In this document: positions 1,659 through 9,700 of the stretch, piece after piece | Position numbering within the stretch: position 1 is the first letter of the stretch | How the letters are laid out: each line of letters starts with the position of its first letter | Origin: a virus | DNA: 64,000 nt | IMG/VR virus record: IMGVR_UViG_3300017917_002918 | Span: 1 to 64,000 of that record | Reading direction: 5' to 3' (one strand) | Position numbers and translations under genes: made by a program | The notes under the pieces: generated by a model | What the model saw: the letters and a program-made list of their open reading frames with translations, nothing else | Databases searched by the model: none | Told to the model about the DNA's origin: nothing

Positions 1659-3472
1659 ATGGCTGAAATACCAAACATTATTGTCGGTGTCAAACTGGAC
1701 ACTTCAAATATAGGTAAACAAGTAGAAGAAATTAGTAAGAAATTTGAAACGAAACCTATTAAGTTAGGTTTTGAATTTAAATTAACAAATGATAATATAA
1801 AACAACAAATGAAAGTCATACAAGACAAATTCGACAATGCAAAAATTAATACAAACATAACTGTTGGTATTAAAGTAGATAGTCGTATTGGCGATATAAA
1901 TAGACAAATTAACCAATTATCAAAACAAATAACCGAGCAATTAAGTGTTAAATTAAAAATAGATGCCAGTGATTTAAATATAATCACTGAAAAAACCAAG
2001 CGAGTCCAAGAACAAGTTCAAATTGCTATGTCACAAAAAAATGTAAAACAAACACCTATATCATATTCTTCTCGTGAATACGAAAGCAGTCTCTTGGGTA
2101 CAAAGAAATCAGATATAGACAAGGCTTTGGATGATGTAATTTCCTCATACAAAGGTAAATTAAGTGACATAAAAGTAAATTTAAATGAAAGCTTGGACAT
2201 TGGTTCAGTAGTTGTTAAATACAAAGATTCAACAGGTAAAATGATTCAAGAAACTATGAAATGGGTGGATGTTGTCGAAGGACAATCCAATAAAGCAAAA
2301 AAAGCATTCAAAACAGTAAGCACCCAAATTGTAGATGACATGAGAAAAGAAGAACAACAAAAAGAAGCAATTCGCAAAAGAGAAGAACAAGAACTTGCGT
2401 CAAGGCAGAAACGTATTGATAAGTTCAAAGATTCTACTTTAAACAGAATTAGTGAAATGGAATCAAAAGATTATAAATACGCTAATCAATTGCGATTTGT
2501 AACCCCAACGAGCCAAGGTAATGTCGAATTAAAAAAAATTAGAAGTGTTGTTGAGGCATTAAATGCATCTACCATATCTTCTAAACAATTCGATAAAGAA
2601 ATTAAAAATATAACAAATAGTATTGATAAGCTTGAAAATAAAGCAATTAAACTTTATAAAGAAATAGATCAAGAGGCTAAAAACGCCACTAGAGGTATAA
2701 AGGCAAGTTTTTCAATAACTCCATTGGGTGATTATAGTACTCCAGGGAAAAAAGCTGGTATACAAAATCCCGCCTCTTTTGAGAAATCAACGGAAGCCAC
2801 AAGAAAATATTTACAATTAATATCACAATTCTCAGGAAAAAAACTCGATTTTGGCATTTTTGAAAGTCAATTCTCTTCGAAACAAATGAAAGAGACTGGT
2901 CAATTGATGACTAACATTGGCGTAAGAGTTTGGCATACAAAAAAAAGATATGAAGATTTAACAGTAAGTTTAAATGATTCTGATAAGTCCTTTAGATATT
3001 TGTCAAAAAGTATAAAAAATGCAGGTTTAAAAGACTTAAACTTTTCAGGGCAATTTATTGAAAACTTAAAGAAATTCCCAATATGGCTAGGTACTGCAAC
3101 AATTGTTATGCAAGGGTTGGCGTTATTTAGAACGGGTGCACAATACATATATGAGATGGATAAAGCATTAACCGATTTGACTAAAGTTGTTGACTTGAGT
3201 ATACCACAAATGCATGAAATGACTAATGCTGCGGTTGCTATGGGTAACGCATACGGTAAATCATCTGTAGAGATAATGAAGTCTATGGCTGAGTTTGGTC
3301 GTGTAACAAAGAATACTGATGAGATTAAGAAATTAACTGAATCTGCTACATTAGCGTCAAATGTAACAACAATGACTGCTGACGTTGCAGCTAAAGCATT
3401 GAATACAACTATGATGGCATTTAAAATAAATGCTAAAGATTCGATGGGAATAGTTGACAAATGGAATGAGTT
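1659..3472 (+). CDS. Tail tape measure protein, exon 1
   Basis: Coiled-coil region followed by a TP901-type TMP core ending DKWNE; RBS GAGGAG precedes ATG 1659; the frame continues in exon 2 after intron removal. Confidence 0.85.
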
Positions 3473-3740
3473 AAAGTTCTCCATAAGTGACTCCTTATAC
3501 AGTAATGTATATGTAAAATGCTAGAGTATCGGAAAAACTCTGTTATTATACAGACAATTCCGAGGTAAACCCTTATTCAAGGGAAACCGTAACGACTGCA
3601 ATTAGCTACCCTACAAAAGAGGGTAAAGGTACAGTCTGAACATCGTAAGCGATTACGAGAAACGGCAGAAATGACCGTTCGCCATAGTACATATGGTCTG
3701 TAACTTAAATTACATATTTAGGTGAAAGTAACAGAATTTG
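3473..3740 (+). ncRNA. Group I intron 1 in the tape measure gene (no ORF)
   Basis: P7 GACTG 3594-3598 pairs with CAGTC 3632-3636; P4-type TCGGAA/TTCCGA; terminal G3740. Removal gives DKWNEL|QNNYRVSSEDLA. The 5' site is uncertain by about 1 nt because P1 is imperfect. Confidence 0.85.
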
Positions 3741-3901
3741 GCAAAACAACTATAGGGTCTCAAGCGAAGATTTAGCAGATTCAATAGGTATTACAGGTAA
3801 CGTTGCACAACAAACTGGAATGTCATTTGAAAAATTAAATGCCATCACAACTGCAATGATCGCAACTACGGGAGCTACGGGAAGTGAAGCGGGAACGGCA
3901 T
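3741..3901 (+). CDS. Tail tape measure protein, exon 2
   Basis: Reads QNNYRVSSEDLADSIGITGNVAQQTGMSFEKLNAITTAMIATTGATGSEAGTA, a typical TMP core; missing from the ORF track. Confidence 0.9.
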
Positions 3902-4203
3902 ATTTCTGTGCCATAACAGCATAATACATAAACTGTTATTCAAAATTTATTCTAATATACGGTGAAACCCTAGCGATAGGCAACACCTTCCAATTTTTAA
4001 TGTTAATTAAAAAGGGAACAACGACTGAACGAATAAACCACATTTATGATGTGGATGCGACAGTCTGAACTTACGCTATAATCTAAAAATGAAACGTAAG
4101 AGTTAGAGTCAAGTGTAACCAGACACTTATTGAAGAACTCTAACCGCCATGTAGCAATATATGGTCAGTAGTCTAATGTAAATTAGATGAAAGTAACAGA
4201 ATG
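3902..4203 (+). ncRNA. Group I intron 2 in the tape measure gene (no ORF)
   Basis: P1 GGCAU/GUGCC with U.G at the splice site; P3 TTTATTC/GAATAAA; P7 GACTG 4023-4027 / CAGTC 4061-4065; terminal G4203. Removal gives GTAL|KSTLSRL. Confidence 0.92.
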
Positions 4204-4415
4204 TAAAATCAACACTTTCAAGACTTTTCCGTATTGGCGAAGAAGGGGCAGACGATGCAGGTAAATCGGAAGAAGCTTTAAACAAACTAGGCATATCTGT
4301 CAGAAAAAACGCAACAGAGTTTCGTAATGCTTCTGACATAGTAGATGATTTGGCTAAAAGATTCAAAACTATGACATCTGTTGAACAAATAGCAATAGCA
4401 CAACAACTTGCGGGT
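4204..4415 (+). CDS. Tail tape measure protein, exon 3
   Basis: Reads (L)KSTLSRLFRIGEEGADDAGKSEEALNKLGISVRK...IAIAQQLAG, in frame with exons 2 and 4. Confidence 0.9.
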
Positions 4416-5062
4416 TAATAATATGGCTCGAAAATACAGTAATGTATCGTTGAAGTTGGCTTTTATCGGGAAACACGTAGACATACGCAATTCCGAGGAT
4501 AAGACTTGATGAATAATCAAGAATCCGTAACGAGTCAGTGATTGTAACAGCAATGTTATGATCCACGCCAACCCCCTATATAATAGGGAGTGACCAATAT
4601 TTGCTAATTATATGGTCAAATATACTCATATATAAGCAAACGTAAAGCTCCGCATATAGAGAAATCTGTATGTAGAAATAGATGACGTATAACAATCTAT
4701 TCAATATCTCAACAACTGCTGGCAATCCCTAAAGCTAACTAAACCACAACGTAAGTATGAAACAAGACTAAGCGTGAGGGTGACGAAAGTAGAAAAAATT
4801 AGTTAGATAGTGCATGGTTAAATCCTAAACACTGTAATAATGGGTCTTCAGCAACATATGTCCGAACAGGATACTGCTCAACGACTATCCCTCTTGAGGG
4901 GAGTAGAGTCAAGCGACTCGAAATGAGAGACTCCAGAAATGGATGATGATATAGTCTGTGCTCATATGAAAGTATGAGAAGTTCATAAGAGAACTGGTGT
5001 AGATTAGCGACCTACATTGAACACGCTAAAAATATATCAAATGTGTATATTTTTATTTATTC

Positions 5063-5092
5063 AAAAAACATCAAGAATTATTCTTGATGTTT
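5063..5092 (-). terminator. Intrinsic terminator of the RHH transcript
   Basis: Inverted repeat ACATCAAGAA/TTCTTGATGT; a U-run follows only on the minus strand. Confidence 0.6.
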
Positions 5093-5236
5093 GGATGCAA
5101 AGTCTTTAAGAACAGTAATTATTAAATTATTAAAACTTCGATTTTGCTCTTTAGCTATTTGTTCTAATTGTTGTTTTAGTTCTTTTGAAATTGTAATATT
5201 GGTGCGTGTGTTGTGTTCAGCTACATTACCTGCCAT
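5078..5236 (-). CDS. Ribbon-helix-helix (Arc/CopG-like) protein, 52 aa, inside the IStron
   Basis: MAGNVAEHNTRTNITISKELKQQLEQIAKEQNRSFNNLIITVLKDF...; RBS AAGGAGG; upstream TTGACT-17-TATAAT on the minus strand; below the ORF-track cutoff. Confidence 0.8.
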   Translation of the reverse strand: MAGNVAEHNTRTNITISKELKQQLEQIAKEQNRSFNNLIITVLKDFASKHQE

Positions 5237-5302
5237 AACAATCCCTCCTTTTAAAATTATTATATCATATTAACACATTGTAGTCAATTAGATCCCAAAC
5301 TA

Positions 5303-5334
5303 TTGACAAACTGATTACAGTATGGTATGATAAT
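5303..5334 (+). promoter_or_regulatory. SigA-type promoter of tnpB, divergent from the RHH promoter
   Basis: TTGACA at 5303 followed by TGGTATGATAAT. Confidence 0.65.
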
Positions 5335-5357
5335 GTTAGAAAGTGAGGTGAGAAAAT

Positions 5358-6509
5358 ATGATTAAAGGAATCACAATTAGACTACACCCAGATGAAAAAC
5401 AAGAACAATTATTATGGAAACATGTTAACTGTGCTAGATTTGTTTGGAATTATGGTTTGCGATTACAACAAGAAAGATTCAAAAATAAGGAAAAACATCT
5501 AAGTGGATATGATTTGAGAAAAGAAATTATAGCCTTGAAGAAAACAGATGATTTTATATGGCTAAATGAGATTTCAAGTCATACAACATTTAATATTTGC
5601 TTAGACTTAGATGGTGCTTATGGTAGATTTTTCAAAAAGGTAACTGGCAAACCAAAATTCAAAAAGAAAAACAGGTGCAAAAATAGTTTCCCAGTAAGAC
5701 AAGATAATTTGTATTTTAAAAATAATTGTGCTGTAGTTGAAAAAATCGGTAAAATCAAATATCAATCGGACTATAAAATACCACAAGGCAGGTTTGTTTA
5801 TAAGTTTAGTAATCCAAGAATTAAGTTTGAGAACAACAAATGGATTATGACGATTGGTATGGAGTACGAGAACCAAGTACATAATTTAACCGATAAGAAA
5901 ATGGGAATAGATTTAGGAGTAAAAGAATTAGCTGTAGTATCCTTTGGAACTGAAAATATAGTTTTTAAAAATATCAATAAGACAAAGAGAGTTAAAACCT
6001 TAAAACATAAACTTAAACATCTACAGAAAGATGTTAATAGAAAATATGAAACCAATAATAAAAACAAGGTTTATGATAAAAAGTGGTCTAAGTCTAATGG
6101 TATAAAAAAACTAGAAAATCAGATAAAGGATATACATTGTAAACTATCAAATATTCGTAAGAACCACATTCATCAAAGCACTAATAGTCTCGTCAAGTTA
6201 TTGCCATATAAGATAACAATGGAAGACTTAAATATTAGTGGAATGATGAAAAACAGGCATCTATCTAAAGCAATAGCAGAACAATGTTTATATGAGTTCA
6301 CAAGACAAATTAAATATAAATGTGAATTTAATGGTATAGAATTTGTGCAAGTAGACAGATTTTATCCATCAAGTAAAACATGCTCTTGTTGTGGAAGCTT
6401 AAAGAAGGACTTAAAGCTAAAAGATAGAGTTTATAAGTGCAATTGTGGATTAGAAATTGATAGAGATTATAATGCGGCTATTAATTTAATGAATTATTCA
6501 AACGTTTGA
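5358..6509 (+). CDS. tnpB: TnpB RNA-guided endonuclease (IS607/IS605 OrfB)
   Basis: N-terminal HTH (IRLHP..EQ..L...ARFVWN); RuvC motifs GIDLG, MEDL and DRDYNAA; Zn finger CSCCG..CNCG; catalytic D/E/D intact. Confidence 0.95.
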   Translation: MIKGITIRLHPDEKQEQLLWKHVNCARFVWNYGLRLQQERFKNKEKHLSGYDLRKEIIALKKTDDFIWLNEISSHTTFNICLDLDGAYGRFFKKVTGKPKFKKKNRCKNSFPVRQDNLYFKNNCAVVEKIGKIKYQSDYKIPQGRFVYKFSNPRIKFENNKWIMTIGMEYENQVHNLTDKKMGIDLGVKELAVVSFGTENIVFKNINKTKRVKTLKHKLKHLQKDVNRKYETNNKNKVYDKKWSKSNGIKKLENQIKDIHCKLSNIRKNHIHQSTNSLVKLLPYKITMEDLNISGMMKNRHLSKAIAEQCLYEFTRQIKYKCEFNGIEFVQVDRFYPSSKTCSCCGSLKKDLKLKDRVYKCNCGLEIDRDYNAAINLMNYSNV

Positions 6510-6680
6510 AATATTGAGAGACGTTTGTCTTAGGGAAATTGGTGTATCCTTGAATGTTGCGGAGTGTTATATCAAATGAAAGTAGGTTTAACCGAAATCA
6601 GACACTATGAAACAACGAATAAATAAAAATGTACCCAAATGTGTATATTTTTAGCATCAGAAGATGGACTCTGAACTACA
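6510..6680 (+). ncRNA. Putative omegaRNA: element right end plus a guide from the flanking outer-intron sequence
   Basis: About 150 nt between the tnpB stop and the element end at 6660; by the established TnpB rule the guide is the 3' flank AAGATGGACTCTGAAC... Confidence 0.6.
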
Positions 6681-6779
6681 CTATAATGTAAACAAGAAGG
6701 TGTAGAAGTGGCAGAAATGACCACTCGCCATAATGCTTATGGTCTGTAACTTTGGTAACAAAGTGAAAGTAACAGAATG

Positions 6780-9700
6780 ACATACCATTACTCCAAGCTA
6801 ATCGGTGTACTTAACAATTATGATGTTGCACTAGAAGCAAATAAAATGCAATTACACTCACAAGGTTCTGCTTATTCCGAGAACCAGAAAAGAATGGATT
6901 CATTTGAGGGCAGGTTGGGAAAACTTAAAACAACTGTAGAAAGTTTCTGGAATTCTTCTATTAATTCAGACCTATTCAAAGGCATGATTTCTGGTTTAAC
7001 TGTTTTAATAGATAAGTTCGGTAATCTTGGGACTGTGTTATCGTTGATAGGCACTGGTTTAGCTCTTTGGAAAGGAAATGAAATTTTAAGTTTCTTCAAA
7101 ACCCTTCCTGCTTCAATTTCAACATCTATTAAAGAGATGACATTGTTTAAAAACATTGCTCTTGCCATGGAATTACGAGAATTGGGATTATTGACAACCA
7201 CTCAGCTATTAAGTAGTAGTTTCAAAGCTTTAGGTATTTCTATAAAAAATGCATTCTTATCTAATCCATTAGGCTGGATTGCAATGGGTTTTACGGCTGT
7301 TACAATGGCAGTGGATATGTTTGGTCAAAAAGCTGAAGAATCTAAGCAACAAATCAAGGATAGTATAGAAGCATATAAATCACTAAATACCGAAGTAGAT
7401 TCGCTTACTGCAACATACATAGAGATTGGAGATAAGTGGAAGACTGATAATGACGAAAAGAAAAAATTAATTGAAACAGAGACTAGACTCAAAGAGATAT
7501 TCGGAGAATCTGCAAAAGCATTAAATTTACAGACCGGAACAGTTGATGATAATATAAAGAAGTTTAAAGAACTAAAAGCGATTAAAGATGCTGAATTTTT
7601 GTTAGAAAACAAAACAAAAATAAACAATGCGAAAGATAGACTTTCGAGCTACAAGTCTGAGAGCTTTTTCTCGGATTCTCCAGCCGACACTTTGAATTTA
7701 GCTCCCGAGTTGTTAGGAAAAATATTTGCGGGCAATCCAAAACAAGTTTTAGCTCAATTAGAATCAGAATTAGCGTTGTTGGGAAAGAGACTTGACGAAG
7801 TTAAAGCAAAGGGAACTCCATTCGATGTGAACCAATACTCGTATTCTTTTGACTTAGTTAATGCCAAAATAAAAGAATATAAAGAAAATATCAAACCTGA
7901 TACCGATTTACTGGAACAGGCAGATCAAAAAGAAAAAGCTATTGCAGAAACTAAAATACTAAATCTTGATAAATTAAATGAAAAACAAACAGCAGTATAT
8001 ACTAATTTAAAAAATTTTGTAAAGTATAGTAATGCAGATCAATATCAAAAAGACTTACAACAAGTTCAGGTTATACTCTCTAGTTTTGATGGTAAAAATG
8101 TAGCAGAGGTTGAGCAACAACTTAGAGCAATAGCAAACTTACCAAATAAAGACATAGAAACAGTAATGAAATCTCTTGCCGATGGTACTTATAAATCTGG
8201 TAAATCTGCCGAAGAATCAAAAAAGGCAGAAGAAGAATTAAATAAAACAATATCAAATTCAATTAACAACATACAAACATTAAACTCTGCGCAGGATGAA
8301 TTAAATGAGAATCATAAGTTATCTACACAAACATTAGAATCAGTTGCAAATAAGTACCCTGAACTGTTGGCTTATATGAATGACGAAGTTCTGATGAGTC
8401 AAAAAATCCAAGAAAAAATAAAACAAGAAAAAGATGATTATGTTGATGCTAGTTATAAAAAAATAGAATCTAACCAAAGTTTTTTTGATAATGTCATCAA
8501 AAACGACAAAGAACTGTGGAGTACTTTAAGTGATGCTTATGGGGATGATTTAAAAAACTTTAAGTCATTAGAGGATGCAAAATTAGAGATAGATAACGAA
8601 ATATCTGCACAAATACTTACTAATTGGATGCAATTAGATGCAACGACAAAAGAAATAATGAGAACCAACATTGACCTGTTGGGGGAAGCGTTAGGATCAG
8701 ATGTCCCTAATGGGCAAGATTCATACGATTTGGCAATGAAAGCATCTACTGGAATGATGAAGGCTGGAGCAACAGAAGATGATGTCGCAAAGGCTGTCGA
8801 TAGTGGAGCTGCTTTAAAAGTAAATAAAATGAAAAAGGCACTCGATACCGCTAAAGCAAAAACAGATGAAATTTTTAGAAATGCTAATTTTGGAGACGGT
8901 AGAAAAAGTAGTGGTTCTACTAGTGCTGGTTCTTCTTCCCCAGCCATCAATGAAGAGGTATACAAAGTAGAAAAAGACCGTTACATGGGTTTAAATCAAG
9001 TTTTAACCTCAGTTAATAATTCGTTAGAAAAGAATCAAGCATTACAGAAAAATGCTACTATTGAAGAACGCGTTAAGTTAATAGCAGAAGAAATTGAACT
9101 GCTACGACAAAAACGCAAAGCTATTAATGACATTGCATGGGAACAAAGTCAGGAAGCAAAAGAGAAAAAGGCTTACCTTGAAAAGAATAATGTTAAATTT
9201 GATCAAAACGGTAACATTGACAAGGCATCCTACGACAGTGTAATTGACTCTATAGCCAACAACACAGAATCAATGAAACGTAAGGGTAATGCTACAAAAA
9301 TTGCTGAAAATAATCAACTCTTGAAAAATCTAGAACAGGCTAATAAAGATTACTTGAGTGCTACTGCTAATGCTGCAAAGAGTATCAATGAACGTGAAAG
9401 TTTAACTGGTGATATATTCGCTAAGCAAAATGATAAGACTAAAGCCGAGATAGAATCCGTACTTGCACCACTAGGGGAACACTTAACTGATTTGAATGAT
9501 CAGTTAACAGGACTGCAAAGTAAATATGATCTATTGGGTGAAAGTGAATTCGATTCAAAGATTGAGAATATTAATAAGCAAATAGTTAATCAAAAACTTG
9601 CATTAATTGATACTGATAAAGCGTTGTCTGAGCTAAGAGCTAAATACAATAAACAAGATACCAATGCCATTGAAAAAAAGGAAATACTAAAAGAAATTGT

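Follow-up and report, generated by a model that had tools for sequence, protein, structure and literature searches.

The virus record is complete (167,401 bp, with direct terminal repeats), and its first 64 kb form the window, that is, the whole stretch of DNA analysed here. The window carries a tape-measure gene that resembles genes of SPbeta-like Bacillus phages and is split into four exons by three sibling group I introns. Translations of exon 1 (ending at 3472, plus strand), exon 2 (3741–3901) and exon 3 (4204–4415, plus strand, 212 nt) match Pfam PF10145 in collinear order, at positions 2–83, 87–137 and 140–201, respectively. The Rfam group I model covers the full length of intron 1 (3473–3740; 45.3 bits, E 1e-10) and matches intron 2 (3902–4203; 20.1 bits) partially, both below the gathering score of 50. 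Intron 3 (4416–6779), here called the outer intron, is interrupted by an IStron and lies in two parts, 4416–4590 and 6661–6779. Exon 4 begins at 6780 (plus strand), where it continues the frame and order of YomI. Against SPbeta YomI, a gene without interruption, residue 70 of exon 3 and residue 1 of exon 4 align side by side with no gap, and exon ligation from 4415 to 6780 is thus predicted to restore the tape-measure frame. Rfam scans of the complete 64 kb and of 4.5 kb detected no group I introns, while in the interval 3440–5080 matches (E 1e-10 down to 0.01) appeared only in stretches shorter than ~1 kb; negative whole-window scans are therefore unreliable for this family.

The phage is unusually intron-rich. 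Three more group I intron matches (Rfam 21.7, 29.9 and 50.1 bits) follow in series at positions 161768–162719 of the genome (G000:C1:161768-162719, L003:1200-2151), and the middle one resembles the IStron ribozyme. In Geobacillus virus E3 (KP144388.1), the annotation divides the tape-measure gene into two CDS, GP42 and GP43 (L052:1843-2152). The gap of ~310 nt between them corresponds in protein position to intron 1 of our phage, which points to an intron that escaped annotation at a site common to both phages.

The structure of the outer intron was derived from direct reading of its 5' part (4416–4590, plus strand), from the MFE fold of the reconstituted intron and from the Rfam-annotated sibling. 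With the insert removed, the folded RNA contains P3, P4-P6, P8 and P9, and the 5' part also includes P2. Exon 3 ends with GCGGGT at the 5' splice site, and in P1 CGGGU pairs with the IGS GCUCG (DNA GCTCG), with U4415 paired to G. P3 is formed by GTTGGC (4455–4460) and GCCAAC (4567–4572), P7 by GAGTC (4532–4536) and GACTC (6667–6671), and P8 lies at 4574–4588. J8/7 consists of AG, the last two bases before 4591, and AAGATG (6661–6666), and is followed beyond P7' by J7/9 (TGAAC, 6672–6676). The 3' domain with the P9 region (6677–6779, plus strand) ends in AACAGAATG with G6779 as terminal G; over 80 nt it shares 79% identity with its counterpart in intron 1. Both J6/7 (GUAAC, DNA GTAAC) and J8/7 (AAGAU) agree with the Rfam-annotated sibling. 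Rfam gave no match to the left half of the outer intron scored alone.

The initial annotation had read the 3' flank of the insertion as J8/7-P7' of the outer intron. Sequence look-up placed AAGATGGACTCTGAACTAC at 6661–6679 and GGGAGT at 4586–4591, and the Rfam alignment of intron 1 gave the J8/7-P7' consensus gAAGAUAUAGUCu, to which AAGAUGGACUCU corresponds in the outer flank, so that coordinates and sibling consensus bear out the assignment. Removal of 4591–6660 reconstitutes J8/7 as AGAAGAUG. A covaried P7, GAGTC/GACTC in the outer intron as against GACTG/CAGTC in the siblings, had likewise been proposed and was recovered: the sibling pairing is present in intron 1 (3594–3598/3632–3636) and intron 2 (4023–4027/4061–4065), and two of five pairs differ from it by compensatory double changes. 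Because P7 has such double changes relative to both siblings, the structural claim for the outer intron holds.

The insertion itself (4591–6660, plus strand, 2070 nt) is an intact group B IStron (IS607-type, CsISt1-like) without tnpA, whose ends were determined by comparison with relatives. Six relatives, found on viral and bacterial contigs, match it as far as GCA(T/C)CAG and diverge directly beyond this point, which sets the right end at 6660, the position that had previously been assumed and that is now independently supported. All related insertions follow (T/G)GGAG, and the next base is T or C. Removing the segment from this T or C to GCATCAG after GGAG restores long ORFs in four of four independent loci (116+121, 445+130, 17+173 and 103+360 aa), and cutting after GGAGT breaks the ORFs in all four. 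In group B IStrons the last exon base is G and the first element base U, and CsISt1 inserts after AG and has the terminus CAG (PMC4227781). A junction between GGGAGT and A was rejected in favour of one between GGGAG and A on the strength of ORF restoration in the four loci and of Tourasse 2014 (PMC4227781). Of the left flank given in the initial annotation (...GGGAGT), GGGAG (4586–4590) consequently stands, whereas T4591 belongs to the element, which starts at 4591 and not at 4592. With these boundaries, GGGAG before T...GCATCAG, the element fits the group B rule of a G-ending site, a first base U and a CGG or, as in CsISt1, a CAG terminus. One IStron of the CAG-ending subfamily lies on a 7.5-kb contig labelled as a Flavobacteriaceae MAG (L027, DJWL01000101.1); at the right end it differs very little in sequence from viral contig L010, and the 7.5-kb contig is likely to be phage DNA that ended up in a bacterial MAG during binning.

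No serine-recombinase ORF A is present in 4591–6660, and members with ORF B only, e.g., CsISt1, count as group B IStrons. The only Resolvase match in the genome (117915–118307) falls in a separate IS607, and a PF07282 scan of the genome gave two matches. This separate IS607-type element (G000:C1:116560-118600, locus L049, minus strand) encodes a 227-aa serine recombinase (118523–117840) overlapping a 393-aa TnpB (117883–116702). Its right end, ...TTCTGTAACGG, has the classic group B/IS607 terminus ACGG, as opposed to CAG in the IStron. A reading of the IStron as an IS605-type element, with the hairpins at 5028–5058 and 6626–6655 as Y1-transposase ends, was rejected on account of the group B end rule and the known group B inverted repeat; no Y1 transposase was found in the phage genome.

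The 5' portion of the IStron is a group I ribozyme (4591–5020, plus strand), as supported by an Rfam Intron_gpI match (4648–4978), covariation and homology. The match spans the whole model but stays below gathering (32.9 bits, E 1e-6). Five homologues support 116 consensus pairs, with compensatory changes in 37, and identity to the intron annotated in Clostridium phages c-st and D-1873 reaches 74%. Its conserved IGS GCTCC (RNA GCUCC, 4647–4651) is complementary to GGGAG. We searched for a P10 pairing between the IGS region and the 3' flank and found nothing convincing; the 3' flanks of the relatives are unrelated.

KGGAG lies directly 5' of five independent insertions, and from these five sites GGGAG (4586–4590, plus strand) is likely to be the TAM and the transposon target motif. 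Its bases are also required for pairing in the inner P1, where it forms the 5' exon strand, and motif conservation does not separate recognition by TnpB from this pairing. GGGAG overlaps the 3' strand of the outer P8, so that the IStron has outer-core sequence on either side. The outer P8 (4574–4578 with 4586–4588) and the inner P1 (4650–4651) both require G4587 and G4588. As these two bases are shared, the precursor would either form the outer P8 or have its inner 5' splice site recognised, but not both at once.

Downstream of the ribozyme, the 5' arm of an inverted repeat (5025–5062, plus strand) is AU-rich and complementary to 6617–6655. A long AU-rich inverted repeat enclosing the ORFs is a feature of group B IStrons (PMC4227781), and here it surrounds the ORF region. 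The group is further characterised by a direct repeat close to the 3' arm. The long-range duplex 5025–5062/6617–6655 has a predicted energy of −34.5 kcal/mol, as compared with −7.3 and −7.5 kcal/mol for the two local hairpins. An antisense gene (5078–5236, minus strand) encodes a 52-aa RHH (Arc-like) protein (Pfam RHH_5, E 5e-6); Arc-like ORFs are known in IStrons (10.1101/2023.11.20.567912). Between this gene and tnpB, two divergent promoter-like sites, identified solely from consensus matches within 5259–5331, each agree with 11 of 12 consensus positions and have a TG extension: one for the RHH gene (5287–5259, minus strand) and one for tnpB (5303–5331, plus strand).

The tnpB gene (5358–6509, plus strand) encodes 383 aa with the Pfam domains HTH_OrfB_IS605, OrfB_IS605 and TNB. 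The protein aligns over its full length to a TnpB of solved structure, PDB 8iaz (E 2e-64), and is 51–66% identical to the relatives found. It contains the GIDLG, MEDLN, DRD and CxxC/CxC motifs, with the D-E-D residues of RuvC and a TNB domain of the zinc-finger type (Pfam TNB, E 7e-24). To judge from its sequence, TnpB looks intact, with the full set of catalytic motifs. The region from the end of tnpB to the right end of the element (6510–6660, plus strand) is an omegaRNA scaffold according to an Rfam RAGATH-18 match (6556–6618, plus strand; 61.9 bits, gathering 44.9) and covariation, and ends with GCATCAG at 6660. It comprises a terminal stem-loop at about 6624–6653 (plus strand) and a covarying pseudoknot between TGGTGT (6540–6545) and GCATCA (6654–6659; both plus strand). 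Seven elements support 29 consensus pairs in the scaffold, 11 of them with compensatory changes, including the pseudoknot pair.

TnpB systems, CboIStron among them, take the guide from the 3' flank and the TAM from the 5' flank (10.1101/2023.11.20.567912). As the IStron sits in the catalytic core of the outer intron, the predicted guide is a piece of a second ribozyme. It would comprise 6661–6676 (plus strand), AAGATG-GACTC-TGAAC, that is, the outer core strand J8/7-P7'-J7/9, which is at the same time the 3' exon of the inner ribozyme; the length of ~16 nt is the literature value. A scan of the 167-kb genome for sites similar to the 16 guide bases found a single perfect match, at 6661 in the occupied allele itself, where the element right end CATCAG is located upstream. 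The next best site (51766, minus strand) has three mismatches and is preceded by GGTAAG, without the motif. Intron 1 has four mismatches, all in the first 12 bases, with AGGGTA upstream, and intron 2 has six with ATGTGG upstream; the mismatches of the sibling introns lie mostly at the TAM-proximal end. With four and six mismatches in 16 bases and no GGGAG motif, introns 1 and 2 are predicted to be spared by TnpB, and sparing of both the siblings and the occupied allele is plausible on these comparisons. The initial annotation had expected the sibling introns to be spared, which agrees with the mismatch counts and the different 5' motifs. The guide identity, an intact TnpB and a conserved, covarying scaffold are likewise supported by sequence; at the left junction the initial annotation erred by one base.

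We consider it probable that the locus represents a transposase-less IStron nested in J8/7 of another group I intron, with ordered splicing and with TnpB acting in homing at IStron-free copies of that intron. Sequence analysis establishes the anatomy, boundaries, conservation, covariation and an intact set of catalytic motifs, while expression, the order of splicing, the length of the guide, the TAM and cleavage are inferred. Without tnpA, the group B IStron would have landed at a chance GGGAG, formed by the 3' strand of P8 and the first two bases of J8/7, in an ORF-less group I intron of the tape-measure gene. The inner ribozyme would splice first and join G4590 to A6661, thereby rebuilding J8/7 and placing P7' beside the other elements of the outer core. 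Splicing of the outer intron from 4415 to 6780 would follow, and the tape-measure frame would be back. TnpB, predicted to be expressed from its own promoter, would carry an omegaRNA consisting of the scaffold to 6660 and the ~16-nt guide AAGAUGGACUCUGAAC. Its target would be GGGAG followed by AAGATGGACTCTGAAC, a sequence present only in an IStron-free copy of the same intron that either arises by excision or sits in a co-infecting relative. TnpB would cut this empty site, and recombination would then copy the IStron back in. In the occupied allele, the target is preceded by ATCAG instead of GGGAG, which is proposed to protect it. A mechanism of this kind has been established for the related CboIStron.

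Splicing and formation of the omegaRNA guide are mutually exclusive in IStrons (10.1101/2023.11.20.567912; PMC13521648), and the initial annotation had envisaged competition between the two. The near-consensus promoter of tnpB means that guide RNA could come from a ribozyme-free transcript, which weakens the case for simple competition here. The −34.5 kcal/mol stem can form only on the long tape-measure transcript, where the alternative is the local omegaRNA hairpin (−7.5 kcal/mol). Given that tnpB has its own promoter-like site and the stem is limited to the long transcript, promoter choice may partition the two RNA fates.

Several more restricted or more far-reaching readings were weighed against homing at IStron-free intron copies. 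The IStron could merely be re-installed among sister genome copies after rare excision by a recombinase in trans, with no invasion of other phages, a somewhat unlikely restriction. Such restoration has been demonstrated as what TnpB does in IS605 and IS607 elements, the genome harbours an IS607 with an intact serine recombinase, and many genome copies are together during replication. Cross-mobilisation is nevertheless unproven between an IS607 with GG-type ends (ACGG) and an IStron with AG/CAG ends, and both modes of homing can coexist. Creation of the empty site by excision is in any case doubtful, because tnpA is absent from the element and the only serine-recombinase IS607 of the genome ends with ACGG rather than CAG, a point that also weighs against homing at IStron-free copies.

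We regard it as unlikely that the IStron is a passive passenger, inserted by chance and kept through good splicing, whose TnpB and omegaRNA have no use on the target and for which the identity of guide and core is inconsequential. The insertion site itself looks incidental, as four other insertions (L007, L010, L011 and L027) sit in ordinary coding sequence and GGGAG alone explains the choice of site, and the absence of tnpA points in the same direction. So does the outcome of our searches, which likewise counts against the homing reading: no IStron-free allele or close phage relative was found in any collection searched. An exact 19-mer and a pattern from the P9 domain, used to look for empty or occupied alleles, gave no matches in viral contigs, a junction-spanning 18-mer gave 14 matches in metagenome contigs that were all unrelated chance hits, and blastn of intron 1 and of the left half of the outer intron against GenBank phages gave no homologue. 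Against disuse, however, tnpB retains its full length, every catalytic motif and a near-consensus promoter-like site, every covarying helix of the scaffold is retained, and loss of TnpB alone is not observed in IStrons (PMC13565253).

A stronger form of the homing model appears quite doubtful to us, namely that the target is locked because P8'-J8/7-P7', which holds both TAM and guide, comprises the bases under the strongest constraint in the ribozyme, while occupancy of the right end by TnpB gates two serial ribozymes and hence tail synthesis. IStron-free rival phages with the intron could then hardly mutate away from cleavage, because an essential tail gene needs these constrained bases, and escape would be limited to paired changes like those that separate the outer P7 from the sibling P7. 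Least probable of all is a regulatory use, in which binding of TnpB or the RHH protein at the right end or the repeat arms would delay inner and then outer splicing and so time tail-protein synthesis: CboIStron TnpB represses splicing, two serial ribozymes hinge on the inner step, and the long-range stem of −34.5 as against about −7.5 kcal/mol suggests a switchable 3' end, but the proposal is purely inferential and a phage benefits little from throttling an essential late protein.

Homing of a nested IStron thus remains our preferred reading, and the nesting can be compared with several known arrangements. Twintrons are nested self-splicing introns of organelles and archaea. As here, the inner intron breaks an element needed by the outer one, which implies ordered splicing, whereas the known cases lack an RNA-guided nuclease that is guided by the catalytic strand of the outer intron. 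Bacillus cereus-group prophages have group I introns at three positions of the tape-measure gene (Tourasse 2008, PMC2504315). They share with our phage the clustering of several ORF-less group I introns in the conserved core, but no nested IStron is reported in any of them.

The IStron itself is close to the group B members CsISt1 of Clostridium sporogenes and CbISt3/4 of the C. botulinum phages c-st and D-1873 (PMC4227781). All have a 5' IA2-type ribozyme and TnpB (ORF B), and CsISt1 also shares the insertion after AG and the CAG terminus. Further common features of the group are a 5' exon ending with G, an element starting with U, the AU-rich inverted repeat and the existence of phage-borne examples. 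Those elements are hosted by a protein-coding exon, whereas ours interrupts J8/7 of a further group I intron. CboIStron (Zedaveinyte et al., 10.1101/2023.11.20.567912; Mortman and Sternberg, PMC13521648) likewise has a scaffold that stops at the right end, a pseudoknot to the 3' terminal bases and a right-end terminus near but not equal to the TAM (TCGG/TGGG there, TCAG/GGAG here). It differs in its motifs (TGGG/CGG as compared with KGGAG/CAG in our tnpA-less element), and in the present case, known from sequence alone, a ribozyme core provides both target and 3' exon, so that the second splicing event would depend on the first.

Much of what this locus combines has precedents. The multiple roles of the IStron 3' junction are described (10.1101/2023.11.20.567912; PMC13521648), with three functions assigned to it (PMC13565253), and homing has been proposed for TnpA-less IStrons, including between co-infecting phages (PMC13565253). 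Competition, the triple-use junction and phage-to-phage homing of TnpA-less IStrons are thus already published. In the literature searched we found no IStron nested in another ribozyme and no link of this kind between IStrons and twintrons. The nesting of an IStron in a ribozyme core looks to be the sole new element, a real and apparently unreported arrangement, to which the proposed interpretation applies known biology in a sound way. One essential phage gene stacks three layers of selfish element, and one short segment would at once be the catalytic strand of a ribozyme, the 3' exon of another ribozyme and the spacer of an RNA-guided nuclease. The system of ~2.6 kb could serve to probe the order of nested splicing, phage-to-phage homing by TnpB, and the choice between guide and splicing in relation to promoter use and long-range versus local pairing. 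Since the underlying principles are already published, what the locus adds to the known systems is a configuration that is new and instructive, while the mechanism is not new.
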